In this document: one piece after another, positions 33,148 to 57,352 of the stretch | Numbering within the stretch: position 1 is the stretch's first letter | How the letters are laid out: every line of letters starts with the position of its first letter | NCBI GenBank assembly: GCA_944358815.1 | Contig: CALVRX010000013.1 | Span: 1-57,352, forward strand | DNA: 57,352 bases | Direction: 5' to 3' | Source of the DNA: an uncultured Bacilli bacterium | GTDB lineage: Bacteria > Bacillota_I > Bacilli_A > RF39 > UBA660 | Translations under genes and position numbers: made by a program | The notes under the pieces: model-generated | Seen by the model: only the letters and a program-made list of their open reading frames with translations | The model's database searches: none | Told to the model about the DNA's origin: nothing

Positions 33148-34443
33148 ATGAAAAAAAACATCTTCTTAAAATCAGTAATTTTACTTTTAATCGGCGGCTT
33201 TATCACTAAAATTATTAGTATGTTTATAAAAATAGTTTTAGCTAGATTAATTGGCACCGAAGGCATGGGAATATATATGTTAATATCCCCTACCTTTGTT
33301 ATGCTCATGGCTCTAGCCCAGTTAGGCTTTCCTGTTGCTATAAGTAAATTAGTAGCCGAAGACACCAAAAACAACAAAAATTTAGTTTTTTCCGTCATCC
33401 CTATATCCTTAACCTTAAACATAATAATCATCGGTTTACTTTTCTTAACCGCTGGATATATATCGCATAACCTTTTAAACGAAGACCGCTGTTATTGGGC
33501 AATCATCTGTATCGGTTTTGTTTTACCTTTCATCAGTATTTCCAGTATTTTAAGAGGCTATTTCTTTGGTAAACAAAAAATGCTCCCACATGTCTTATCC
33601 AATGTCACCGAAGACTTAGTAAGATTAATTGCCTTAATTATTGGTATACCCATTTTCCTCAAACTTGGAATCGAATATGCAGTCGCTTTTATCGTTTTAA
33701 CCAACGTCATCAGTGAACTTACTTCTATCTTTGTCCTTTTCTTCTTTATACCTAAAAATTTTAAAATCACTAAAAAAGATTTAAAACCTAATAAAGGTAA
33801 CATTAAAGAAGTTTTCTCCATTGGTATACCTACAACTATGAGCCGAATTATTGGTTCCATCGGCGCCTTTTTTGAACCCATTATTTTAACTTATGGACTC
33901 ATCAAAAGCGGTTATTCAAATAATTTTATCGTCAATGAATATGGTATTTTAAACGGTTATGTCATGCCCCTAATATTACTTCCATCATTCTTTACTGGCG
34001 CCATATCTCAAGCTCTCATTCCAAACATTTCAAAAGCTCATAGCAAAAAACATTTCAAATATGTCTGGACTAAAATCAAACAAGCCATCTTTATATCTTT
34101 ATTAATCGGCATACCAGCTACCCTTATCTTTGAATTAATTCCTACTATTCCCATGAAACTAATCTATAATACTACTGTTGGCATCGATTATATTAAAATA
34201 CTAGCCCCCATTGCTCTTATGCACTATATTCAGTCACCTTTAACTGCCTCACTTCAAGCTATGGGTAAAGCCAAAGAAGCTATGCATGGAACCCTAATTG
34301 GTACTATCATCAGAACCATTACCTTATTTATTCTCTGCTTTACCCACATTGGACTATGGGCTCTTATATGGGCAACTGGCATCAATATCGTCATCGTCAC
34401 CGTCCATCAATATATTCATGTCAAAAAAGCCTTAAAAGTGTAA
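33148..34443 (+). CDS. spoVB: Stage V sporulation protein B-like MOP flippase
   Basis: ARLIGTEGMGIY, LGFPVAISKLVAE, LRGYFFG, LQAMGKA. Confidence 0.85.
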   Translation: MKKNIFLKSVILLLIGGFITKIISMFIKIVLARLIGTEGMGIYMLISPTFVMLMALAQLGFPVAISKLVAEDTKNNKNLVFSVIPISLTLNIIIIGLLFLTAGYISHNLLNEDRCYWAIICIGFVLPFISISSILRGYFFGKQKMLPHVLSNVTEDLVRLIALIIGIPIFLKLGIEYAVAFIVLTNVISELTSIFVLFFFIPKNFKITKKDLKPNKGNIKEVFSIGIPTTMSRIIGSIGAFFEPIILTYGLIKSGYSNNFIVNEYGILNGYVMPLILLPSFFTGAISQALIPNISKAHSKKHFKYVWTKIKQAIFISLLIGIPATLIFELIPTIPMKLIYNTTVGIDYIKILAPIALMHYIQSPLTASLQAMGKAKEAMHGTLIGTIIRTITLFILCFTHIGLWALIWATGINIVIVTVHQYIHVKKALKV

Positions 34444-34459
34444 AAAAGACAATATTCAA

Positions 34460-37400
34460 TTATTGTCTTTTATCTAAACTTTTATAAAACTCAAACCTTT
34501 TAATAGCCGCGTCCTTATTTGCCTTAAGCATTTCTTCTGCATGCTCTGGATTAACCGTTTTAAGCATACTATAACGTGTTTGATTATTTAAAAATTCCTC
34601 ATATAAATCAAAATTAGGATTTGGACTATCTAAAATAAATTCCTCTTTACGTCCATCATACCTAAATATTGGAAAATATCCACATTTAGTAGCTAAAGAC
34701 TCTTCTTCCACTGAACAGCCCATGCCAGCTTTAATACCATGAGATATACAAGGACAGTACGCAATAATAATAGACGGACCATCATGCTTTATCGCTTCAT
34801 CAAACGCCTTAATCGTCTGCATCATATTTGCTCCAAGTGACACTTGTGCCACATAAACATTTGGATAAGCCATCGCAATTCTTGCTAAATCTTTTTTATA
34901 ATTTTTCTTACCATGCGCCGCAAACTGTGCAACCATACCTTCTGGTGTTGCCTTAGACGTCTGACCTCCAGTATTAGAATAAACTTGTGTATCTAAAACT
35001 AAAACATTAATATTATCGCCACTAGAAAGTACATGATCGATACCACCAAAACCTATATCATAAGCCCAGCCATCACCACCGATAGCCCAAACATTCTTAG
35101 CTACAATATAATTTTTAAGTTCCTTTAATCTTGGATACTTTTTATAATCAATCTTTAAAGCAACTTCTTTAGTAATATCATAATCGTTAGAATTCTCTAA
35201 CCATTTTTCAAAAAGATCATTTTTATTTTCTAACATATACTCTCTAACTAAGTTTTTACCATATTCAAAACCATTTAAAATACCATAACCAAACTCAGCA
35301 TTATCCTCAAATAAACTATTTGCCCAAGGAACACTATATGGCGCATTTGGAAGCTCTCCACCATAAATAGATGAACATCCTGTCGCATTAGCAATAACAA
35401 GATTATCACCTGAAAGTTGTGTAAGTAATTTAATATAAGCTGTCTCCCCACAACCAGCGCACGCTCCATGAAAAGCAAACTTTGGTCTTTGCAGTTGACT
35501 CCCCTTAATTGTTTCCTTTTTAAAATTATCTTTAACACTTACATTATCTACTAAATAATCAAATATTTTATCATTTTGACTATCCGTCAATTTCTCAAAT
35601 GCTAAAGCCTTATTTCCTCTTAAACCAGGACAAGTATTTATACAAACACCACATCCCGTACAATTTTTAGCCGATACTCCTATTATGTAATAATAACCAT
35701 TAGCTCCTGTAGCCGGCTTACATCTTTCTTTAACATAATCCGGTGCCTGCTCATACTCATCAGCATTAAGTAAAAATGGACGAATTACACCATGAGGACA
35801 TACTAATGAACACATACTACATTGAATACAATTTTCCTTTATATATTCAGGTACATATTCAGCAATATTCTGCATCTCTGGTTCCATATGGACAAAACTT
35901 CCATCCTCATAACCTTTAAAATCTGAAACTTTTAACTCATTACCTTTTCTATGACTCAAAGCATCATATATATTATTCACTTTAAAATCAAGCATTTCTG
36001 CTTCCGTATCTAAATGAACTCTTCTTAAACTTACATCTCTTAAAGCCTGAATATTATTCAAAGCCACCTCTTTGCTTTTTACCCCAAACTTTTTCATTAC
36101 ATAATCTTCTAATTGTTTACTAGCCACATCTTCTGAAATAAAATCAATCAATTTAAATATTGCCCTCTCCATAATCATACTAATTTTTCTGCCTAAATTA
36201 TGCTTTCTGGCAATTTCATCCGCATCAATTGCATAAACAGTAATATTTTTATCAATTAAAAACTTTTTATATGGTTTTAACACTTTTAATAAACGAATAT
36301 CATCCATAGACGTATTAATCAATAATACACCATTTTCTAATAAATTAGTCACAGCATCAAAAACTGATAAATAAGTATCTTTAGAAATAACCGTTAATTT
36401 TGGATGATGCACAAAATAAGTTGATCTAATTGGTTTATCAGAAAAACGTAAATGACTACATGTTACTCCGCCAGACTTTTTAGAATCATATTCAAAATAA
36501 CCTTGAACATATCTATCTTGACCAGCAATACTAAGTAATGACTTACTACAGCTAACCATACCATCACTACCATAACCATAAATCAAAACTTCTGTAGTAT
36601 TATTTACGGAAATTTCACTATAATCTAAACTTAAATTAGTCACATCATCATCAATACCAATTGTAAACTCATCTTTTGGAGCATCCAACATGTCATAAAC
36701 CGCTTTAATCATGCCCGGTGTCACATCTTTACTAGAAAGACCATAACGTCCATGACAGATAGTTACATTCTTATTTTTTAAACTACTAACTACATCTAAA
36801 TATAAAGGTTCACCCTCACTTCCCGCTTCTTTAGTGCGATCAAGAACTGCAATTTTACATACACTATCAGGTAAAACATCTAATAAAAATTTATCACTAA
36901 AAGGACGATATAAATGAACTTCTACTAAACCAATCTTTTCATCAGTATAATCTATATATTCCTTAATAGTCTCACAAACAGATCCCATAGCTATAATAAC
37001 CTTTTTAGCATCTGCATCACCATAATAATTAAATGGCTTATAACTAGTTCCTGTAAGTGTATTTATCTTATCCATATATTTCTTAACTATATCCGCCGCT
37101 TGATCATAAAACTTATTTCTAGACTCCATCTCTTGAAAATAAATATCGCCATTTTGATTAGTTCCTCTAGTTACCGGAAATTCATTATTTAAAGCCCTTT
37201 TTCTAAACTTTTCTAACTGTTTAAAAGAAATAAGTTTTTTAATATCCTCATCTTCTAATAAATTAATCTTATTAAGTTCATGGCTAGTTCTAAAACCATC
37301 GAAAAAATGTAAAAATGGAAGCATTGCCTCAATACTCGCCAAATGACTGACCAAAGCCAAATCATAGGCCTCCTGCACCGAAGAAGAAGCTAAAATACAA

Positions 37401-37807
37401 AATCCAGTTCCTCTAACAGCATATATATCTTGATGATCACCAAAAATACTAAGTGCATGCGTAGCCAAAGAACGAGCCGCCACATGTATAACCCCAGGTA
37501 ACATCTCACCAGCTATTTTATACATATTAGGAATCATTAAAAGTAATCCCTGACTTGCCGTATAAGTTGAAGCTAAAATTCCAGATTGTAAAACACCATG
37601 TACCATTCCTATAGCCCCAGCTTCACTTTGCATCTCAATAACCTTTGGTACTGCCCCAAATATATTTTTCCTTCCTTCTGCTGCCCACTTATCAATTAAC
37701 TCTGGCATTGGACTAGAAGGTGTAATCGGATAAATTCCAAGCACTTCACTAAATAAATAGGAAGCATGTACACATGCTTCATTACCATCACAAATTATCT
37801 GTCGCAT
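34460..37807 (-). CDS. nifJ: Pyruvate:ferredoxin (flavodoxin) oxidoreductase
   Basis: YPITPS, MQSEAGA, two CxxCxxCxxxCP motifs, GACAGCGE, GGDGWAYDIG, YSNTGGQ. Confidence 0.96.
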   Translation of the reverse strand: MRQIICDGNEACVHASYLFSEVLGIYPITPSSPMPELIDKWAAEGRKNIFGAVPKVIEMQSEAGAIGMVHGVLQSGILASTYTASQGLLLMIPNMYKIAGEMLPGVIHVAARSLATHALSIFGDHQDIYAVRGTGFCILASSSVQEAYDLALVSHLASIEAMLPFLHFFDGFRTSHELNKINLLEDEDIKKLISFKQLEKFRKRALNNEFPVTRGTNQNGDIYFQEMESRNKFYDQAADIVKKYMDKINTLTGTSYKPFNYYGDADAKKVIIAMGSVCETIKEYIDYTDEKIGLVEVHLYRPFSDKFLLDVLPDSVCKIAVLDRTKEAGSEGEPLYLDVVSSLKNKNVTICHGRYGLSSKDVTPGMIKAVYDMLDAPKDEFTIGIDDDVTNLSLDYSEISVNNTTEVLIYGYGSDGMVSCSKSLLSIAGQDRYVQGYFEYDSKKSGGVTCSHLRFSDKPIRSTYFVHHPKLTVISKDTYLSVFDAVTNLLENGVLLINTSMDDIRLLKVLKPYKKFLIDKNITVYAIDADEIARKHNLGRKISMIMERAIFKLIDFISEDVASKQLEDYVMKKFGVKSKEVALNNIQALRDVSLRRVHLDTEAEMLDFKVNNIYDALSHRKGNELKVSDFKGYEDGSFVHMEPEMQNIAEYVPEYIKENCIQCSMCSLVCPHGVIRPFLLNADEYEQAPDYVKERCKPATGANGYYYIIGVSAKNCTGCGVCINTCPGLRGNKALAFEKLTDSQNDKIFDYLVDNVSVKDNFKKETIKGSQLQRPKFAFHGACAGCGETAYIKLLTQLSGDNLVIANATGCSSIYGGELPNAPYSVPWANSLFEDNAEFGYGILNGFEYGKNLVREYMLENKNDLFEKWLENSNDYDITKEVALKIDYKKYPRLKELKNYIVAKNVWAIGGDGWAYDIGFGGIDHVLSSGDNINVLVLDTQVYSNTGGQTSKATPEGMVAQFAAHGKKNYKKDLARIAMAYPNVYVAQVSLGANMMQTIKAFDEAIKHDGPSIIIAYCPCISHGIKAGMGCSVEEESLATKCGYFPIFRYDGRKEEFILDSPNPNFDLYEEFLNNQTRYSMLKTVNPEHAEEMLKANKDAAIKRFEFYKSLDKRQ

Positions 37808-37819
37808 CTACTTTCCCCC

Positions 37820-38866
37820 TTATTTATGACAATCCTCATCAGCATTTCCAAACTCTAAATCATAGTCAAAACTATTACCATTTTGTGTAGTAATAACGAC
37901 ATTAACTCCACCAGTTGATTCAGAATATGGTTTATCAGTCATCGGATTCTCTAAATTTTTATCGATATAACCACCATTAAAAGTTAAACCATTAACTGTA
38001 CCGCCATTTTGTAAAACCGTCAAATTTATTCTTGTTGTCCCACCAGCTGAAGGCAATAAACTTGGATAATCAGTAGTCAGCATCTTAGCACCTTCAATTA
38101 TATTTTTCTTTTGAACTAAACAGCTATCATATCTGCTTTCTTTTAAATTACTATCCACTGCTGTTACTGCCACTAAACCTAAAATACTCAAAATTACAAT
38201 AACTCCAAGTAACTCGGCTAAAGTAAAACCATTACGTAATGCCTTTTTTAATTTATAAACTTGACTTTGATAATTATCGCTTCCTGTAATAAAAGAACCA
38301 ACTACCGCAATATCCGCATCTCTCACTAATCTTATTGTATTATCATTAATACCACCATCTACTTCTATTAAATAAGCACTATTATTTTCCTTACGATAAC
38401 TTACTAAACTACCAATCTTATCAGCTACATCGATAAAACTCTGTCCACCAGCACCAGGTGTCACACTCATAACTAAAACTAAATCAACATCAGATAAATA
38501 AGGATATAATTTTTCTAAAGTCGTTTCTGGATTAATTGCCACTCCAGCCTTAATTCCCTTGTCATGAATATAATTTATTACCTTTAATATATCATCACAA
38601 GCCTCTAAATGAAACGTAATATAGTTAGGATTTAAAGCTGCCACTTCATCTATATATTCTTTTAAATCATTAACCATTAAATGCACATCAAAAGGTTTTT
38701 TCAAAGATAAAATACTATCCTTCATTTTTTCTAAAGGCAAAGTTGCCTTTTCCGTAAATTTACCATCCATTACATCAACGTGAATTACATCACAAACTTT
38801 ATCTAACTCTCTAATCTTCTCTCCATCGTTTTGAATTTTTAAAAAAGAACCAGCAATCTTAACCAT
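37820..38866 (-). CDS. rpe: Ribulose-phosphate 3-epimerase fused in frame to a type IV pilin
   Basis: aa 1-213 Rpe (HVDVMDG, DVHLMV, MSVTPGAGGQ, EVDGGI, VGS); aa 214-348 start FTLAELLGVIVILSILGLVAV after KKALRNG. Confidence 0.9.
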   Translation of the reverse strand: MVKIAGSFLKIQNDGEKIRELDKVCDVIHVDVMDGKFTEKATLPLEKMKDSILSLKKPFDVHLMVNDLKEYIDEVAALNPNYITFHLEACDDILKVINYIHDKGIKAGVAINPETTLEKLYPYLSDVDLVLVMSVTPGAGGQSFIDVADKIGSLVSYRKENNSAYLIEVDGGINDNTIRLVRDADIAVVGSFITGSDNYQSQVYKLKKALRNGFTLAELLGVIVILSILGLVAVTAVDSNLKESRYDSCLVQKKNIIEGAKMLTTDYPSLLPSAGGTTRINLTVLQNGGTVNGLTFNGGYIDKNLENPMTDKPYSESTGGVNVVITTQNGNSFDYDLEFGNADEDCHK

Positions 38867-38877
38867 CCATAATCACC

Positions 38878-39705
38878 TCATTTTAAGAAATTTATATAAT
38901 TATCATATCTACTTTTTAAAATAGTCCCATCCATCACTTTTTCTTTAACCTTACAATCCTTCTCATGGATGTGAAAACAATCTCTAAACTTACATCCATC
39001 TCTATATAAATTAAACTCCACAAAATTATCTCTTATATCTTCTCGGCTCATACCATTAAACTCTAAAGCCGAAAATCCCGGAGTATCAGCGACTAGACCA
39101 CCACACATTTCTATTAGTTCTGTATGTCTAGTAGTATGTTTTCCTCTATTTAAAGCTAATGAAATTTCTCCAGTTTTTAAATGTAAATCCGGTTTTATCT
39201 TGTTAAGTAGTGTTGACTTACCAGCTCCGCTTTGACCTGTAAAAACGCATACTTTACAAGGAAAAATCTTCTTTATTGCCAAAATATCATCGTTCATATA
39301 AACAACATAACCAATTTTTTTATAATATTCTATTATTGGTTTTATATTGTTTAACTCTTCTACACTTAGTAAATCAGCTTTAGTAAACACAATTACCGGT
39401 TTAACCTTATTATACTCACAAATAACTAAAAATTTATCTAAAAGATTAGCCGAAAAATCAGGCCTTTTTAAACTAGTAATAATTACTGCAATATCGACAT
39501 TAGCAATTACCGGTCTACGAAGTTCATTCCTCCTAGGTAAAATCTCTAAAATATATTTATCTTTTTCATCAAAAATCACTTCATCACCAACAATTGGTGA
39601 AAGGCCTAATTTTCTAAACTTTCCTCTAGCCTTACAGATAAACATTCCATCACTGCATTTTACTGTATAATCATTGCTTATTTGTTTAACAATCTTTCCC
39701 TGCAT
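38878..39705 (-). CDS. rsgA: Ribosome small-subunit-dependent GTPase A
   Basis: TKAD, GQSGAGKS, GKHTT, DTPGF, CxFxDCxHxxExxC. Confidence 0.95.
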   Translation of the reverse strand: MQGKIVKQISNDYTVKCSDGMFICKARGKFRKLGLSPIVGDEVIFDEKDKYILEILPRRNELRRPVIANVDIAVIITSLKRPDFSANLLDKFLVICEYNKVKPVIVFTKADLLSVEELNNIKPIIEYYKKIGYVVYMNDDILAIKKIFPCKVCVFTGQSGAGKSTLLNKIKPDLHLKTGEISLALNRGKHTTRHTELIEMCGGLVADTPGFSALEFNGMSREDIRDNFVEFNLYRDGCKFRDCFHIHEKDCKVKEKVMDGTILKSRYDNYINFLK

Positions 39706-41436
39706 TTACTGTATATCTCCAGTATCAGTTGTTTCTGTATCTGTGTCAACTTGTGGCGTAGCAGGTGTTTCCGGATTTTTCACAACCTTTATTCTTAAAT
39801 TAGCTCCTTTACTAACTTTACTACCAGCCTGCATATTTTGATATGTTACCGCACCATTAGACTTACTACTATCTTCGACATAAGTCACATTTAAAGTAAG
39901 ACCATTATCATCACAAAACTTTTTAACATCCGCCTCAGTATAAGTTCCATCAGTAAAATTAGGATAACTAACATAAATACTTGGTACTGTTAAAATAATC
40001 GTATCATCCTTACCTAATTTTGTTCCAGCTTCAACATTTTGTCCTACAATAACACCTTCTTCATAATTTTCTGTATTAGCTACTGATTTATAATCACGCT
40101 CGACATTTATACCAGCTTTTTCTAGTTCTTCCTTAACATCATCATATTTTTCACCAGTATAATCTTCAATTGTTATCTTATCAGAACCTGTTGAAATAAC
40201 CAATGAAACCTCAGACCCTTCTTTTATACTCTCGCCAATTTCTGGATCAGTTCCAATAACTTTTCCTTTTTCAACATCATCGCTAGCTTCCTTTTTCCTC
40301 TTGCCAGCCACTTCTAATCCCTTATCTTCCAACGTACTCTCAGCTTGTTTCACAGTCATTCCTTTAACATCTGGAATATCAATATATGGTTTTTCGGAAA
40401 TCTTAGGCCATAATATAAAGACAAAAATCAAAGCTGCAATTAAAACTCCAACAATAGATGCTACAATAATTAATGCCTTATTCATTCGCTTATCGCTTTT
40501 ATTTTCTTCTTTAGTCGCACTTCTTGACACTCTACCTTGTTTATTACCCTTGCTATCGTCGTCAAAACCTTTTTCCGGATATTTATATACTACCTTTGGT
40601 TCATTAAAACGCTCCTTATCCAAAGCCGTTTTTAAATCATCATGCATTTCCCAAGCTGAATCATAACGATTTTTAGGATTTTTAGCAGCAGCTCTTAAAA
40701 TAATATTTTCTATAGACTGTGGCATTTCTGGATCATACTCACAAATACTTGGAATTGGCTCATTCATGTGTTTAATTGCCACTTCTACAGGATTATCCCC
40801 TCTAAAAGGCACATGACCGGTAACTAATTCATACATCAAAATGCCTAATGAATATATATCACTTTTAACCGTTGCTGCTCCTCCATTAGCTTGCTCAGGT
40901 GGTATATAATAAACTGTTCCCATCACACTATTAGTTTGTGTAAATTCTCCGGCATTTAAAGCTACCGCAATACCAAAATCCATTATCTTAACTCTACCAT
41001 CTTCTAAAATAATAACATTTTGTGGTTTAATATCGCGGTGAATAATATAACTTTCATGGGCATGTGCTACTGCGCTTGTAAGCTGAAGCATAATATCTAC
41101 CACTTCTGGTAAAGTAAGACTTCCCCTTTTTTTAATTAACTGTTTCAAAGTAAGACCTTGAACATATTCCATTACTATAAAATATTTACCGTTATCTTCT
41201 CCAACATCGTAAACTTCAACAATATTAGGATCATTTAAAGAACTAGCTGAAATAGCCTCTCTTTGGAAACGTCTAACAAACTTTTCATCTTCAGCTAAAT
41301 CACCTCTTAAAATCTTTACGGCTACTTTTCTATCTAAAATAGTATCTTGTGCTAAATAAACATTAGCCATTCCACCTTCGCCAATTGATCTAATAATTTC
41401 ATAACGGTCGTTAATTAATTGTCCCCTAGTTATCAT
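39706..41436 (-). CDS. prkC: PASTA-domain Ser/Thr kinase
   Basis: GEGGMANV, HRDIKPQN, DFGIA, TM, three PASTA repeats. Confidence 0.95.
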   Translation of the reverse strand: MITRGQLINDRYEIIRSIGEGGMANVYLAQDTILDRKVAVKILRGDLAEDEKFVRRFQREAISASSLNDPNIVEVYDVGEDNGKYFIVMEYVQGLTLKQLIKKRGSLTLPEVVDIMLQLTSAVAHAHESYIIHRDIKPQNVIILEDGRVKIMDFGIAVALNAGEFTQTNSVMGTVYYIPPEQANGGAATVKSDIYSLGILMYELVTGHVPFRGDNPVEVAIKHMNEPIPSICEYDPEMPQSIENIILRAAAKNPKNRYDSAWEMHDDLKTALDKERFNEPKVVYKYPEKGFDDDSKGNKQGRVSRSATKEENKSDKRMNKALIIVASIVGVLIAALIFVFILWPKISEKPYIDIPDVKGMTVKQAESTLEDKGLEVAGKRKKEASDDVEKGKVIGTDPEIGESIKEGSEVSLVISTGSDKITIEDYTGEKYDDVKEELEKAGINVERDYKSVANTENYEEGVIVGQNVEAGTKLGKDDTIILTVPSIYVSYPNFTDGTYTEADVKKFCDDNGLTLNVTYVEDSSKSNGAVTYQNMQAGSKVSKGANLRIKVVKNPETPATPQVDTDTETTDTGDIQ

Positions 41437-42170
41437 CTATTTTCCTCCTTTTGCAAATATGCAACTGATATATTATCTGTTCCACCTCGATTATTAGCTT
41501 TATTAATTAACTTTTGTACTTTAGCATCAATATCTAAATCACTATCTAAAACCGCTTCAATCTGTCTTTCATCAAGCATATTAGTAAGTCCATCACTACA
41601 AAGCAAAATGCCACTTACATCCCTTTCTACATCAAAAACATCCATCTCCACAGATATATTCGCACCAAGTGCTCGCATAAGCACATTTTTCCTTGGATGA
41701 TCTTTTGCCTCTTCTTCAGTAATTTCGCCAGATTTCACTAATAAATTCACTAAAGTATGATCGTTTGTGATCTTATATATTTTTTTATCCTTAATAACAA
41801 AACCAGAAGAATCACCAATATTACCAAACAATAAAAAATCATCAGTTAAAAGTGCCATAACAATCGTCGTACCCATACCAACACTTTCCGGATTATCCTC
41901 CGTATATTTATATAAAAGCATATTCGCTTCACTAACAATTTCCTTTAAAAAATCAATTGCCTCATCCTTATTTCCAACACTAGATGAATCGACAAATCTT
42001 TTACCTATATGTGTAATAGCAATTGATGAAGCAATCTCTCCACCTTTATGACCACCCATACCGTCAGCCACTGCCATTAAAATTTCTCCAGCCTCATTTT
42101 TTACAATTGTTACACTGTCTTCATTATGATCTCGGACTTGTCCAGGATCGGTTAAATATGAAAATTCCAT
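41433..42170 (-). CDS. prpC: PP2C Ser/Thr phosphatase
   Basis: RDHNED, VADGMGGH, MGTT, CSDGL, GGTDNI. Confidence 0.95.
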   Translation of the reverse strand: MEFSYLTDPGQVRDHNEDSVTIVKNEAGEILMAVADGMGGHKGGEIASSIAITHIGKRFVDSSSVGNKDEAIDFLKEIVSEANMLLYKYTEDNPESVGMGTTIVMALLTDDFLLFGNIGDSSGFVIKDKKIYKITNDHTLVNLLVKSGEITEEEAKDHPRKNVLMRALGANISVEMDVFDVERDVSGILLCSDGLTNMLDERQIEAVLDSDLDIDAKVQKLINKANNRGGTDNISVAYLQKEENR

Positions 42171-50695: not shown

Positions 50696-51523
50696 TTATT
50701 TTTTATAAAAAGTACTAGACATCTTATACTTGCCATCTTCTAACACCAAAGCAATTATATTACCCTTAGCATTTATTTTTTCTTCTAAAGAAGCATCTTT
50801 CCAAGTAATCCCACCATCTAAACTATACTTGTAAGTATAATTATCTCCAGTAGGATACTCAATTACTAAATCATTACCATCTTTAAATTCAATACCACCA
50901 GTAACTTTAATTAATCTATTTCTTGAAATAGTATTACCTCGAGCATCTTGAGCCTTACATTCAATCACATAATTTCCAACCTTCGAAGTAAGCGTATTAT
51001 CACAAGAAAAACTTACCTCACCAGAATTATCAGTCGCCACTACCCCATCTTCTACATTATAACTTAACGCCTCATCACTAGTAATAGTTACTGTATCCGG
51101 AACTACTAAATGTGGTTTTTTATTATCTGTAACTATCACTACCCTAGTACCTTCTTTTAATTTTTTACCATCACTCACTTCATACTTAACAACATAATTA
51201 CCAACTTGATCAGTATTAATTGAACTAATTTGATTACCATCTTTATAATAAGATATAACTATTTTTTTTGAAATATTTTCACCATCAGCTATCGCTTTAG
51301 CGCCTTCTTCTTTATACTTTTCATTAACTCCAACATAAGATACAAAATTACCATTAAGAGCTAAAGTAAACCCATCTGATTTTACATTTGTATTTTGCAA
51401 AACCTCTTTAGCTTCTGGTCTATTCATATAATTAACAATTTTAGAACCAATCAATAAAATGACAAGCCCAATAACAATTAAAGTAATCAAACCAACTAAC
51501 TGAGCTCTAGTATAACCATTCAT
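50696..51523 (-). CDS. Membrane-anchored Ig-like (DUF5011/HYR-type) protein
   Basis: TM; YKEEGAKAID, GNYVVKYEVSD, VATDNSG repeats; follows two pilin genes. Confidence 0.7.
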   Translation of the reverse strand: MNGYTRAQLVGLITLIVIGLVILLIGSKIVNYMNRPEAKEVLQNTNVKSDGFTLALNGNFVSYVGVNEKYKEEGAKAIADGENISKKIVISYYKDGNQISSINTDQVGNYVVKYEVSDGKKLKEGTRVVIVTDNKKPHLVVPDTVTITSDEALSYNVEDGVVATDNSGEVSFSCDNTLTSKVGNYVIECKAQDARGNTISRNRLIKVTGGIEFKDGNDLVIEYPTGDNYTYKYSLDGGITWKDASLEEKINAKGNIIALVLEDGKYKMSSTFYKK

Positions 51524-51527
51524 AAAA

Positions 51528-51962
51528 TCATTCCTTATTTATATTCGCAATTGTGCAACTATCTGCATCAGTAATATTTTTATTTATCCTAATATCTTTT
51601 TCTGACGCATCTTTAACCGCACAAATATGAGCATCATTACTCCAAAGTGCTAAAGAAACTTTACCATTTTCATCAACACTAAACTCTCCAGCATCTGGTA
51701 AATCACCATCAGTTTTCAAAACATTTTTTTCTGTTTCTGTACTCGTCTTATAATTAATAAAAAGTGTTGTATTTTCATTTGCCGCTTGTTTTTCTGCTTG
51801 ATAAGTGCCAGCTGCCACCACTAAACCATGTGCACTATCCACAAAGGCTTTTTCTCTAGAAGATTGAATTATATTTAAAACAATAGGAGTTGTTATCAAA
51901 GCAATAATCGCAATAATTGCAATAACTGCTAAAAGTTCAACTAACGTAAAACCCTTTTTCAT
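51528..51962 (-). CDS. Type IV pilin
   Basis: MKKG|FTLVELLAVIAIIAIIALITTP class III signal peptide; C-terminal Cys pair; GAGGAGG RBS. Confidence 0.9.
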   Translation of the reverse strand: MKKGFTLVELLAVIAIIAIIALITTPIVLNIIQSSREKAFVDSAHGLVVAAGTYQAEKQAANENTTLFINYKTSTETEKNVLKTDGDLPDAGEFSVDENGKVSLALWSNDAHICAVKDASEKDIRINKNITDADSCTIANINKE

Positions 51963-51963
51963 A

Positions 51964-52329
51964 TTATTCAACCTCCTCGACATCATAAGCATATTCTGTA
52001 GCTCCCACTTTTTCAATACAAACCTTAGTTAATTGTGAAAAATTATCATTAGTCTTCGGATTTTTTATATCGACCGGTAAATAACCATTTTTTTGTAAAT
52101 ATTCGATTGTCTGACAAGCCTTATCTCCTACACTTACCGGCATCTCATCCAAATGTTCCGTATAATAATCCTCTCCACCTTTTTTTAACTGTTCAATTTG
52201 TGTTTCATATAAATCTTCTCTGCCACTATCTAACGATCTATTAATAGCTGGCACCGTAATCAATGCAATAACTCCAAGTATTGCGATAACTCCAAGTAAC
52301 TCTGCTAACGTGAAACCTTTATTATTCAT
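51964..52329 (-). CDS. Type IV pilin (ComGC-like)
   Basis: MNNKG|FTLAELLGVIAILGVIALITVP; LQKNGYL...KNPKT; Cys pair. Confidence 0.9.
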   Translation of the reverse strand: MNNKGFTLAELLGVIAILGVIALITVPAINRSLDSGREDLYETQIEQLKKGGEDYYTEHLDEMPVSVGDKACQTIEYLQKNGYLPVDIKNPKTNDNFSQLTKVCIEKVGATEYAYDVEEVE

Positions 52330-54412: not shown

Positions 54413-55486
54413 TTAGTGTAAATGTTTTGCCTTTAACTCTTCATTACTCACGCCAAATCGTTTTATAAAATCTTTATTAGACATCACCAAATAATTAAAT
54501 GCCTTATGATCTAAAACAATATTATTAAAAATTAAATAATCCATACGTGCCAAAGTAAGATTTTCACTTTGTATTAAATAAGTTGGTCTTCTTACTACCT
54601 CAGACTCTAATGACGCGTTTTTTAAAATATCCAGTTTCTTATTTACACCTGCCACTGAATAACTAAAAATCATAGGTACCTTCGTTGTTATTCTAATAAC
54701 ATCATTATTAGAATAACCTCGATTCAAAAAATTTTGAAAAGTATTCGCAATATTTTCTTCACTCAACACATATATTATCGGATTTACTCCCGTAATATGA
54801 TTAATCTCGTCTTCACTATAACCCAGTTTAACCAAACACTTTCGTTTATTTTCAAGCGTATCCACACTTACAACCATAATATTAGAATTTCTATAAATCA
54901 TCTTCTTGATACGTTCACTATCATAACCTTTAGAAAGTAAATAATCATAATTCTTCTGTAAAAGTTCTAAACTATAAGTATAAATCATAGGCGAATCCTT
55001 AGTAATTTTATTAATCTCCTTATCATCAAACCCAATTTTTTTTAAAAAATCACGTTTACTATTTAATTTCTTAGAAGAAATACTAAATAAACTAGGAAGT
55101 ATTACCGTAAGTTCATGCACTGTAGTTTTAAAATAACCATAATCCTTTAAAAGATTTAACTTTGTTAAAATAAGATTTTCACTAATTGTTAATAATTGTG
55201 GAAGTTTTTTAGTCATTTTTTTTATCTCATCATCTTTGTAACCTAGTTCATGCAAAAAAGCAAAACGCCTATTTAACGTTTTGATCGGATAATTCAATAA
55301 AGCTGGATTACAAGTCGTCATATAAATAATATCTTCATCTAAAAAACCCAACCCTTTTAAATAATTAAACATAACTTTTACCTTAGACTCCAAAGTAGGT
55401 AAACTAAGCCTACTTCCAACATAACTATTCATAATCTTAATTTGTGACTTCTCATCATAACCTAATTTACTCAATAATTCAGACAT
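54413..55486 (-). CDS. mTERF-like tandem repeat protein
   Basis: About eight repeats of about 35 aa, pattern (L)GY/FxxxEIxxMxxxxPxLLxxSxxxLxxKxxxL, ending VVRRPTYL. Confidence 0.7.
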   Translation of the reverse strand: MSELLSKLGYDEKSQIKIMNSYVGSRLSLPTLESKVKVMFNYLKGLGFLDEDIIYMTTCNPALLNYPIKTLNRRFAFLHELGYKDDEIKKMTKKLPQLLTISENLILTKLNLLKDYGYFKTTVHELTVILPSLFSISSKKLNSKRDFLKKIGFDDKEINKITKDSPMIYTYSLELLQKNYDYLLSKGYDSERIKKMIYRNSNIMVVSVDTLENKRKCLVKLGYSEDEINHITGVNPIIYVLSEENIANTFQNFLNRGYSNNDVIRITTKVPMIFSYSVAGVNKKLDILKNASLESEVVRRPTYLIQSENLTLARMDYLIFNNIVLDHKAFNYLVMSNKDFIKRFGVSNEELKAKHLH

Positions 55487-55495
55487 ATCAATCAC

Positions 55496-55864
55496 CTACA
55501 TTTTTCTTAATGAAAATAAATACCAAAAATGTACATAAAAATATAAAATTATAAATATCGTCCATCCTAAAATGGGTACTACTAAACTAACAATCCACGG
55601 ATAAGGTAATAAATAAACCTCTTCCCCCGGGACCTTAAATTTTAAACTTACCAAACAGCCAATCTTAATCGAAAAAACTAATAACATAATAAGTCCTGGA
55701 AAAATGCCCATCATAAATCCCAAAACCCAATAGTACCAACGATGATACCAAGCATCTTTATCATATAAATCTAACTTATATGCGATATAAAATGTGAAAA
55801 GTCCTAAAGTTATAACATTTAAAATTAAATAAATCCAAAATTTTTTCCGCATCTTCTCCATCAT
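55496..55864 (-). CDS. Hypothetical membrane protein
   Basis: Three to four TMs, LNVITLGLF motif; AAGGAG RBS. Confidence 0.65.
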   Translation of the reverse strand: MMEKMRKKFWIYLILNVITLGLFTFYIAYKLDLYDKDAWYHRWYYWVLGFMMGIFPGLIMLLVFSIKIGCLVSLKFKVPGEEVYLLPYPWIVSLVVPILGWTIFIILYFYVHFWYLFSLRKM

Positions 55865-55907
55865 AACGTTCTCCTTTGAAGGGTCAAAAAAAAGATAAAT
55901 AATTATC

Positions 55908-56099
55908 TTATTGGCAAGTTCCCTCACCTGGTTTAGACCCTTCGACATACTCTTTATCTATAAGTTTACAAGATGTTTTTGTCATTGAGTCTTGAAGATA
56001 GCCCCCCAATAGCTTAACTAAACTAACGACTACTACACTAATAATCGCTATAATTAGTAAATATTCTACTAGGGCTTGACCTTTATTATTTAATTTCAT
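55908..56099 (-). CDS. Flp/Tad-type (type IVb/c) pilin
   Basis: MKLNNKG|QALVEYLLIIAIISVVVV (G|QxxxEY motif); GGAGGG RBS. Confidence 0.85.
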   Translation of the reverse strand: MKLNNKGQALVEYLLIIAIISVVVVSLVKLLGGYLQDSMTKTSCKLIDKEYVEGSKPGEGTCQ

Positions 56100-56235
56100 A
56101 AAACCCTCCACAAAAATATCATAACTTATTTCAATTATAATTTTTTTTTTAATAAAAATCAACCCCATTAGCAAAAAACAAACAAATTTAAAGACAAAAA
56201 GTATAAAATGTGTTAAGATAAAAATGGTGAGAAAG

Positions 56236-56520
56236 ATGAAAATAATTGAAGCCAAAACTTTCTATCAAAAACTAAAAGGCCTTATGTTTCAAAAAGAATT
56301 TGATTACATTCTCAAATTTAAAACAAATGGCATCCATACTTTTTTTATGAAAACAAACATTGACGTTATTTTAACGGATAAAAATAATAAAATCTTACAC
56401 ATCTATAAAAACCTAAAACCAAATAAAATAATATTACCCAAAAAAGGTGTAAAATACATCTATGAAATACCTGTAAACTATATAAACAAAACAAAAATCG
56501 GAGATTATTTTAATCCCTGA
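56236..56520 (+). CDS. DUF192 family protein
   Basis: AKTFYQKLKGLM, IHTFFMK, IDVI, YE; this family is often found near Tad/Flp loci. Confidence 0.8.
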   Translation: MKIIEAKTFYQKLKGLMFQKEFDYILKFKTNGIHTFFMKTNIDVILTDKNNKILHIYKNLKPNKIILPKKGVKYIYEIPVNYINKTKIGDYFNP

Positions 56521-56529
56521 TTTTTTTAT

Positions 56530-57352
56530 TTACCCTAAAATATATGGATCTGACGCTGTTCCTGTACCTCTCGTGATTTGGACTTCAGAAGAAAGAGTTA
56601 TAGCGGGCCTGACTCCATGGTATGTAGTGCTCACATAGTCGCTGTTGACGCCGCCACTGCTGTGCACGGTGAACACGTAGCTAGAGGAGTCAGAATTAGG
56701 CGACAAGGTCCACCAATAATTAATACTTGAATCAAACATCCAATCGCTATTCTTACATGTCCTATAATTATTTTTATTTAAACTAAATGTTCCACACTGT
56801 TTTTTATTTGAATTTGCTCTTATATATTCACTTAACGTTGGTAAGGCTACTTTTACTTTTGATGTTGTTCCTTTTTCATCACTAATTTGGTCTTGTATAT
56901 AATTATTACCCAATGTTACTGCACCCGCATAATACGTTGCTTCTACTATTTGACTTTGAGCTGTGCTTGTTAAACTATTATAATAATCCCCATTCAAATA
57001 AGTATTTAAAGTTGCAGGAAAATTCCAATTATTTGAACTGAAACTATCCCATGCTAAATTATCAGAAGTATTTATATCTGCATCCCTCATTATCTTTATC
57101 GTTCCATCTGAATTTATGGATATGATTCTCCAACCTGCTATTTCATCATTAAATGTTACATAATTATTGGGATTGGCTCCTTTATATGTATATTTTCCGT
57201 CTTCATATTCATCTTTGTATAACCCATCTCCTGAGGTTACTATATCAGTATTATCTAATATTGAATCACCAGTAGTAGGTTCTTTTGTACATTCTGCATA
57301 AAGCTCATCTATTGCTCCTTGAACATCACTCGCCTGCATTCCACTCGCCGTA
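56530..57352 (-). CDS. C-type-lectin-fold/DUF6273-like surface protein, probable DGR target (partial, starts beyond window)
   Basis: Frame open to the window edge; KGANPNNYV, WRII, VALPTLSEY, WWTLSP...GVRPAITL, GTGTASDPY. Confidence 0.8.
   Translation of the reverse strand, partial: TASGMQASDVQGAIDELYAECTKEPTTGDSILDNTDIVTSGDGLYKDEYEDGKYTYKGANPNNYVTFNDEIAGWRIISINSDGTIKIMRDADINTSDNLAWDSFSSNNWNFPATLNTYLNGDYYNSLTSTAQSQIVEATYYAGAVTLGNNYIQDQISDEKGTTSKVKVALPTLSEYIRANSNKKQCGTFSLNKNNYRTCKNSDWMFDSSINYWWTLSPNSDSSSYVFTVHSSGGVNSDYVSTTYHGVRPAITLSSEVQITRGTGTASDPYILG
56601..56716 (-). repeat. Putative DGR variable region (VR)
   Basis: About 55% GC (61/110 by hand count over 56601-56710); 19 of 35 codons between WW and GVRP end in C; pattern fits A-to-N mutagenesis of AAC/AAT codons. 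Confidence 0.7.

Follow-up and report, generated by a model that had tools for sequence, protein, structure and literature searches.

In the available text of two published accounts (PMC10191384, PMC4471445), the leader of a type IV prepilin "invariably ends" in Gly or Ala, this last leader residue is critical to cleavage by the prepilin peptidase, and the peptidase, which works without a partner, cuts on the cytoplasmic side. The same text describes Glu5 of the pilin as needed for assembly and dispensable for cleavage, and the N-terminal segment alpha1N as buried in the core of the filament. Published leaders, as given in the available text of one of these accounts, are 6–26 aa long and stand at the N-terminus of the protein (PMC4471445). 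Here we describe a gene in which the place of the leader is taken by 213 aa that make up a complete folded enzyme. It lies at 37820..38866 on the minus strand of the window, by which we mean the whole 57,352-nt stretch of DNA that we analysed (contig CALVRX010000013.1, from an uncultured Bacilli bacterium of the gut), and it is a single open reading frame (ORF) of 348 aa, from an ATG start to a TAA stop, that encodes ribulose-phosphate 3-epimerase (Rpe) and then, with no stop between, a type IV pilin. We think it somewhat better than an even chance that this gene is a natural two-protein precursor, cut by a PilD-type prepilin peptidase into a cytosolic Rpe and a membrane pilin.

The fusion has much in common with type IV prepilins, including the Gly|Phe-Thr-Leu-Ala-Glu site, which follows a basic stretch and opens a hydrophobic segment of about 24 residues that contains Glu5; a long alpha1 helix and a beta-sheet head are predicted for it. 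Its pilin half is orthologous to short-leader pilins of sister species, and its genome has a cognate PilD along with PilB-type and PilC-type genes. Class III prepilins are recognized by a Gly or Ala that ends the leader and by some 21 hydrophobic residues after it with Glu at +5, all of which the fusion has. However, they are also recognized by the N-terminal position of this motif behind a short hydrophilic leader, and this description does not cover a protein in which 213 Rpe residues precede the site. Because the motif is internal, pilin-finding tools that work from the N-terminus miss the fusion.

Modular pilins such as PilB and PilC of Streptococcus sanguinis are also similar, in that a pilin module is joined through a short linker to a domain foreign to pilus biology, and they are called a product of evolutionary tinkering in the available part of PMC8179133. 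There the pilin motif is N-terminal and the added module is C-terminal, on the filament (PMC8179133, available part), whereas Rpe is N-terminal to the motif, would be cytoplasmic and would be on the leaving side of the cut, which places the fusion outside the definition of a modular pilin in Raynaud et al. (2021). The survey of pilin architectures in Dataset S1 of the same paper is, from its available part, restricted to N-terminal motifs. In full-text literature, subscription journals and supplements aside, no account of Rpe together with a prepilin came to light, nor any of a polyprotein that includes a pilin or of an enzyme grafted to the N-terminus of a pilin.

An epimerase frame that continues into a pilin

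The Rpe module spans residues 1–210 (38237..38866; this and all other genes given by window coordinates are on the minus strand) and is a TIM barrel whose last helix is formed by residues 199–210. The Pfam family PF00834 (Rpe) matches residues 10–192 with an E value of 1.7e-49, and residues 11–210 align at 34% identity with residues 18–218 of the stand-alone Rpe of Streptococcus pyogenes (2fli), that is, to the end of a chain of 220 residues. The AlphaFold 2 (AF2) model of the fusion, for which 65 fused homologues were the input, has a mean predicted local distance difference test (pLDDT) score of 92.8, with the barrel above 90, and by Foldseek the barrel superposes on 2fli with a TM score of 0.89–0.92 and a root-mean-square deviation of 1.6–2.0. 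His29, Asp31, His62 and Asp170, which we take to be the metal-binding and catalytic residues, do not vary among 65 fused sequences, and 2fli and 3ovp have the same amino acids at the aligned positions. The fusion differs from a stand-alone Rpe in that the frame has no stop behind the barrel and continues into a membrane segment and a predicted extracytoplasmic domain.

The barrel ends in a basic, leader-like tail, KLKKALRNG (residues 205–213, 38228..38254), whose last residue, Gly213, is encoded at 38228-38230 and is followed directly by Phe214 at 38225-38227. The junction thus reads ...YKLKKALRNG|FTLAELLGVIVILSILGLVAVTAV..., where FTLAELLGVIVILSILGLVAVTAV is alpha1N (residues 214–237, 38156..38227), with Phe at +1 and Glu at +5. 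The family PF07963 (N_methyl; IPR012902) matches residues 211–233 with 22.7 bits against a gathering cut-off of 21.2. From Phe214 onward the mature pilin module (residues 214–348, 37823..38227) comprises 135 aa. In the AF2 model the barrel is followed by a coil (residues 211–215), a 51-residue helix (residues 216–266) and a beta-sheet head, and the coil, which carries the Gly|Phe bond, is the least confident block (pLDDT 74). Across the AF2 models, this helix and 4–6 strands are predicted, with pLDDT 87.7–92.8. The pilin head has two invariant cysteines, Cys249 (38120-38122) and Cys346 (37829-37831).

Alpha1N is the sole hydrophobic segment of the whole protein, and KD19 hydropathy windows above 1.6 begin only at residues 210–224. 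Residues 199–213 contain four Lys or Arg and no Asp or Glu, giving a charge of +4 before the hydrophobic segment compared with -1 after it, and the predicted topology is therefore positive-inside. If the protein were cut after Gly213, the 38.0-kDa precursor would yield an Rpe of 23.6 kDa and a pilin of 14.4 kDa. Most of this anatomy had been proposed in an earlier, sequence-only reading of the window, and it holds: the metal-binding motifs are intact, Rpe reads through without a stop into a complete 135-aa pilin within one ORF that carries both PF00834 and PF07963, and the basic tail ends at the Gly codon that was named. The paralogy it had noticed with another pilin of the window also stands; the gene at 51964..52329 has an ordinary leader, MNNKG|FTLAE, an N_methyl match with an E value of 2.7e-6, and 34% identity to residues 212–338 of the fusion (E 2.6e-8). 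A second paralogous pilin, at 51528..52016, has the leader ...MKKG|FTLVE.

The source genome (G000) is a bin of 1.05 Mb in 50 contigs, with 29% GC and an estimated completeness of 63%, and since it is a fragmented metagenome bin the junction had to be checked for error. Contigs from two runs of a different study, X3 (record 5, 37700-38790) and X5 (record 21, 37729-38603), bridge the junction with no differences and no gaps; run X1 was left out as a possible source of the bin, X4 lacks coverage of the junction, and the comparison is between assembled contigs rather than at read-level depth. None of the 24 runs listed is an RNA run that holds the locus.

We then turned to relatives, scoring a species as fused if it gave an uninterrupted full-length match and as split if Rpe was separate, at about 200–245 residues. 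The genus is represented by 65 species-level genomes. Of these, 35 are fused, 27 are split, two matches are truncated or at a contig end (G251, G262) and one genome has no match (G277), so that 35 of the 62 scorable species have Rpe and pilin in one ORF, although these counts are not independent because the species are related to one another. The fused genomes include three that consist of a single contig. In a collection of 5.8 billion proteins, all 68 clusters of at least 300 aa among the best 120 matches are fused; they come from four sources and are 48–100% identical to the query. The two of them that carry names from their sources, P0038 and P0053, are named only as ribulose-phosphate 3-epimerase, and in fused species generally the pilin is hidden from annotation.

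Such a frame could in principle stem from an error of assembly or sequencing, or from a pilin gene behind rpe that has only recently died, given a bin that is 63% complete and an ancestral gene overlap in which a single-base error can merge the two frames. However, independent assemblies agree, 35 species and 68 clusters are fused, the in-frame junctions are more than one base away from the split form, and the ratio of nonsynonymous to synonymous substitution rates (dN/dS) is 0.11–0.30 at a dS of about 0.8–1.1. We regard error or decay as having a negligible chance of being the explanation; the fusion is real, and it is neither an assembly error nor a one-off lesion. The sequence-only reading had held that relatives with a stop and a separate start would expose the fusion as such a lesion or error. 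Relatives of that kind do exist, with leaders of the MNKKG type in the 27 split species, but they do not prove a lesion, given that the fused form occurs in 35 of 62 species and in several lineages independently.

From neighbouring genes to one frame

The fusion sits among genes that all lie on the minus strand, in the order rlmN, a prpC-like PP2C phosphatase gene (41433..42170), a prkC-type Ser/Thr kinase gene with three PASTA stretches (39706..41436), rsgA directly upstream of the fusion (38878..39705; PF03193, E 4e-53), the fusion itself, and a gene for pyruvate:ferredoxin oxidoreductase (PFOR; 34460..37807) that starts 12 nt past the fusion's stop. The placement of rpe within a prpC-prkC-rsgA-rpe operon, as first read from the window, is thus borne out, and we take this order to be the usual neighbourhood of rpe, as in Bacillus.

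We compared the junction across 25 species, 12 split and 13 fused. In each of the 12 split species the pilin gene comes next after rpe. In seven of them the end of rpe, ...N-E-stop, overlaps the pilin ATG one base out of frame, with a Shine-Dalgarno (SD) sequence inside the 3' end of rpe and a leader that reads MNKKG|FTLAE or MNKKA|FTLAE (MNKG|FTLAE in G019). Another three show an ATGA overlap, G013 has an overlap in another frame and a longer leader, MGRNIKG, and G020 has a 100-nt spacer between the two genes. The 13 fused species have no rpe stop. KLKKALRNG is the junction of the clade to which the window belongs, and elsewhere the tail reads ...LFMEKKDG, ...ALFQKG, ...NYMKG, ...LKKHNA or ...LKKALG, with a further FMNKG group among the clusters; these junctions are lineage-specific, in frame, and more than one base away from the split form. 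Apart from the junction, the 27 split sister species of the genus have the same gene pair in the same order, an orthologous pilin and the same invariant residues, and coupled expression at about 1:1 would be expected of both forms. In the split species, however, a stop in rpe, an SD in its 3' end and an ATG leading into MNKKG|FTLAE would give two polypeptides by translation.

A maximum-likelihood (ML) tree was built from RsgA and Rpe residues 1–198 (28 rows, 474 columns), leaving out the junction and the pilin. In this tree G000 falls within a fused clade of eight species (support 100/100), the fused G001 is sister to the split G015 (100/99), and the basal lineages are split. The locus tree needs five changes of state, at least four of which are forced by well-supported branches, and an approximately unbiased (AU) test rejects a single fused clade (difference in log likelihood 264, p 6.6e-42). 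Outgroups have Rpe alone: in 137 genomes of other genera that match Rpe, no match continues past residue 214 without a stop, and in other genera of the family PFOR or other sequence follows rpe with no pilin (loci L056–L061), PFOR directly in two of them. About 20 Rpe matches that run past residue 220 through stops had raised the possibility that rpe and a pilin are adjacent across the whole family; we rejected this since the six loci L056–L061 lack a class III motif. Only in G030 (L044), an unrelated small genome from another family of the class, does a pilin lie near rpe; it has a short leader, MSRG|FTLIE, and is about 130 nt downstream, so that this neighbourhood may have arisen independently.

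Read on the locus tree, the split state, with a stop and a separate start, is ancestral, and a pilin gene came to lie between rpe and PFOR when the genus arose and then fused with rpe several times. The rpe stop would have overlapped the pilin ATG in the ancestor, and small insertions or deletions would have joined the two frames, several times within the one genus. The fusion may have been tolerated or even favoured because a protease site able to separate the products already existed, and the genus thus offers a natural experiment in which overlapping genes have fused at least four times, apparently since the existing cleavage site makes fusion harmless or useful. One part of the sequence-only reading fails here. 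It had proposed that the fusion ties pilin supply to a core operon, but split relatives already hold the pilin gene in the operon, translationally coupled to rpe, so this coupling is not a consequence of the fusion.

If the pilin were still started separately in fused species, at an internal and possibly non-canonical start, then the full-length fusion would be minor or incidental and the two proteins would arise by translation. A few junctions hint at this, with an in-frame Met before the site in G001 (...NYMKG|F), in G007 (...LFMEKKDG|F, which also has a weak SD-like site at -5.5 kcal/mol) and in the FMNKG clusters, and with TTG as the codon of Leu at -7 in four species. Nevertheless, no ATG, GTG or TTG lies in frame within 30 codons upstream of the site in G000, G022 or G012, which agrees with the original observation that no start lies near the junction of the window; the nearest such codon there is a GTG 32 codons away, within the barrel. 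Reading the window further, we found no ATT, ATA, ATC or CTG within 19 codons. The -7 codon is read as Leu and not as a start that has been kept, because TTA or CTA replaces TTG in four other species of the same clade. Across the clusters, 51 of 67 have no Met in the 15 residues that precede the site.

The strength of the SD, scored against a generic anti-SD motif, separates the two forms. In all 12 split species an ATG lies 2–6 codons before the Gly or Ala at -1 with a median SD of -7.3 kcal/mol, and the median for the 15 other pilins of G000 is -6.5 kcal/mol. The candidate starts of fused species range from -0.4 to -3.8 kcal/mol, with single values of -5.5 (G007) and +2.0 (G001), compared with an rpe-internal background of -2.4, so that 12 of 12 split species keep an SD and 12 of 13 fused ones have nothing stronger than background. 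Because start codon and SD have been lost in fused species, separate initiation is, as far as sequence can tell, not the conserved route to the pilin. Even where such a start were used, a full-length product would still be made and its fate would still need an explanation. We consider separate translation of the pilin improbable.

A second way to make free Rpe would be a -1 ribosomal slip at A_AAA_AAG, which would end Rpe four codons on (...KKGIT*) and make the fusion the unshifted product. This heptamer, which we take to be dnaX-like, does lie in the zero frame at 38243-38249 with a -1 stop four codons further, and a near stop is also present in G003. However, G023 (G_AAG_AAA) and G009 (G_AAA_AGA) lack the heptamer, G018 and G022 have no -1 frame stop within about 20 codons, and a run of A is expected of a Lys-rich leader at 29% GC. 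We rejected the slip since it is not conserved across fused species, and we think it highly improbable.

Constraints on the site and the fate of the fused protein

With translation into two products set aside, we asked what the junction itself has conserved, counting site residues in an alignment of 68 clusters that was made free of the motif. Position -1 is Gly in 64 of the 68 and Ala in the other four. All 68 have Phe+1, Thr+2, Leu+3 and Glu+5, while in 13 species the Gly codon varies among GGT, GGA, GGC and GGG and the Glu codon between GAG and GAA. Because only Gly or Ala is accepted at -1, Phe+1 and Glu+5 are invariant, and the codons turn over synonymously, the constraints on the site look to be what cleavage and assembly of a pilin would impose and not those of a mere anchor. 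In addition, if alpha1N is buried in the filament core, as in described pili, there would be no room in a filament for an uncut 213-aa domain.

Both halves of the protein are under purifying selection. Across the eight species of the fused clade, Rpe has a dN/dS of 0.26 and the pilin head one of 0.30, with a lower value of 0.11 in the first 28 pilin residues (alpha1N); dS is about 0.8–1.1. The head diverges 1.24–1.30 times as much as Rpe in fused pairs and 1.51 times in split pairs (excluding G004, which has a 491-residue pilin), and because the ratio is not above that of split pairs we see no relaxation of the pilin head upon fusion. Cys249 and Cys346 are invariant, and the set of invariant residues does not differ between fused and split pilins. 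As for the enzyme, the fused gene is the sole PF00834 match in G000 and in five of five fused genomes searched, and from this and the dN/dS of 0.26 we infer that the Rpe half is active.

The sequence-only reading had staked its model on the genome having a prepilin peptidase, and one is present. A PilD-type bifunctional enzyme of 253 residues is encoded on G000 contig C26 (53673-54500), adjoining a PilC-type gene, with an A24 N-terminal (methylase) domain that has four Cys (PF06750, E 1.7e-34) and an A24 peptidase domain (PF01478, E 3.5e-12). Its CxxC...CxxC motif, D117 and GGGD182 are invariant in five sequences, and by analogy D117 and D182 would be the catalytic Asp residues. One copy of PilD is found in 62 of 65 genomes of the genus, including all 35 that are fused, and PilB-type and PilC-type genes are present in G000. 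A complex prediction with PilD (five-row alignment) and the whole fusion (65 rows) scored 0.02 against a mark of 0.32 and was not used as evidence either way.

Taken as a precursor, the protein would be processed as follows. Rpe would be translated first and would fold in the cytoplasm, after which alpha1N would insert N-in/C-out like a signal-anchor, placing the head outside and keeping ...KLKKALRNG at the membrane's inner face. The single bifunctional PilD-type peptidase would then cut after Gly213, freeing soluble Rpe, and the mature pilin, probably N-methylated, would join the membrane pool for type IV filaments. The sequence-only reading had proposed a polyprotein of this kind, and the fusion, the lost start and SD, Gly or Ala at -1, Phe+1 and Glu+5, the topology and the presence of PilD all speak for it, apart from the link to the operon that we have set aside above.

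Several observations weigh against cleavage of such a precursor. Only about three residues (R-N-G) separate the folded 23-kDa barrel from the scissile bond, given that residue 210 aligns to residue 218 of the 220 in 2fli. Published leaders, by contrast, are hydrophilic and unstructured at their 6–26 aa (PMC4471445, available text), and the active site of the peptidase is, from the available text of PMC10191384, very near the membrane and adjoins the enzyme's own cytoplasmic methylase domain. Because known leaders are short and unstructured and the active site is close to the membrane, steric exclusion of the folded Rpe from the peptidase is possible. Fold searches with the pilin head were weak, with a best Foldseek E value of 0.25 and VIA Z scores of 3.9–4.9, although the top rows are pilins and pseudopilins. 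The kinship of the species counted and the generic anti-SD motif belong on the same side.

A further point against cleavage comes from Rpe with other C-terminal tails, which an exhaustive search of representative proteins brought up. Among the 120 clusters listed around P0172, 74 have at least 25 aa past the natural end of Rpe, and 73 of these 74 tails contain one to five hydrophobic segments. A class III motif is absent from all of them; a YGxxAF motif is common to many, and a Cys loop recurs. Examples besides P0172 are P0139, P0146, P0157, P0165, P0173, P0182, P0233 and P0269–P0385. This looks like an apparently undescribed, membrane-anchored form of a cytosolic enzyme. Members such as P0172, P0139, P0157, P0173 and P0182 resemble the fusion in having a full Rpe, a short charged linker and one or more hydrophobic segments, and they are seen in many independent assemblies, but their tails have neither the Gly|Phe...Glu5 site nor a pilin head, and a prepilin peptidase could not be expected to release them. 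In 151 sampled genomes of the order to which our genus belongs we found no such tailed Rpe; all 12 matches at an E value of 1e-55 or below are Rpe-only, at about 210 aa. The tailed group is therefore an analogy and not a neighbour.

Since anchored Rpe exists without any protease site, tethering as such becomes more plausible as something tolerated or selected. The fused protein could accordingly be a permanently membrane-tethered Rpe that is uncut or rarely cut, with alpha1N as a signal-anchor, the head outside and unpolymerised, and Rpe at the membrane tolerated or selected. Rpe evidently works when anchored, if the tailed forms are a guide, the short spacing before Gly213 fits an uncut protein, and since the fused gene is the sole rpe its activity must survive whatever becomes of the precursor. 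Because Rpe with uncleavable tails does exist in other lineages, we treat this as a serious rival, though an unlikely one. A plain anchor needs no Gly or Ala at -1, no Phe+1 and no charged Glu in the bilayer, yet all of these are kept in 68 of 68 clusters and through independent fusions; the head and its Cys pair are under purifying selection that is the same as or tighter than in split species; and the tailed group was not found among the 151 genomes of the order.

Between anchoring and cleavage lies another arrangement, in which alpha1N has been co-opted as a cleavable anchor. The sole Rpe of the cell would be held at the membrane and the peptidase would set its release, so that pentose-phosphate capacity and pilin supply would be coupled stoichiometrically through a one-protease switch, and both the repeated fusions and the non-pilin tails would reflect selection for Rpe at the membrane. 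We think this quite unlikely.

Should PilD cut the precursor, its range of substrates would widen from leaders of 6–26 residues to a folded 23-kDa enzyme, and the gene would be a rare natural case of a bacterial polyprotein split by a membrane protease, on which tolerance of cytoplasmic bulk could be tested with a natural substrate. A membrane tether for cytosolic cargo that a peptidase can release might also be of use in engineering.

Other pilins and pilus genes of the genome

The pilin repertoire of G000 is unusually large, with sixteen pilin-like genes over 10 contigs in a bin that holds 63% of a genome of about 1 Mb. A motif scan of the genome gave 18 matches, of which these 16 are real pilin-like genes, and 15 of the 16 have an ATG 3–6 codons upstream and leaders of 4–7 aa. 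The same whole-genome scan shows no N-terminal fusion to a pilin in G000 other than the rpe-pilin gene. Among relatives, 11 loci where pilin matches fell in frames of about 345–740 aa gave ten ordinary short-leader pilins with long C-terminal parts, and one (L055) with no motif match. The mature parts of relatives' pilins reach 313–729 aa, so the genus also has C-terminally extended pilins like the modular pilins. The rpe-linked pilin itself is longer in two split species, G004 (L018, a mature part of at least 491 aa in a frame that runs to the edge of the locus) and G021 (L017, 190 aa), which are C-terminally extended variants.

On contig C26, the PilC-type platform ORF (54445-56175, minus strand) encodes 576 aa with two T2SSF repeats and a long N-terminal extension, and it overlaps the start region of the peptidase gene. 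Contig C27 has a Tad-like cluster at 33788-38612 that begins with two small Flp-like ORFs, followed by four larger ones: a 246-aa ORF that appears ParA-like by eye, a 442-aa ORF with a match to PF00437, and ORFs of 497 and 168 aa that both match PF00482. In the window, a small protein at 55908-56255 has a weak Flp/Fap-like match (PF04964, E 1.6e-4, below the cut-off). Both types of pilin may be served by the same enzyme, since no genome yielded more than one A24 peptidase.

A scan of promoters and terminators was uninformative, with 64 promoter-like sites compared with 68.8 expected. Directly downstream of the two paralogous pilins of the window, 50696-51523 encodes 275 aa that include Ig-like domains of the bacterial surface type, and a DUF6273 protein is encoded at the window end (56530-57339); both are possible pilus-associated surface proteins.

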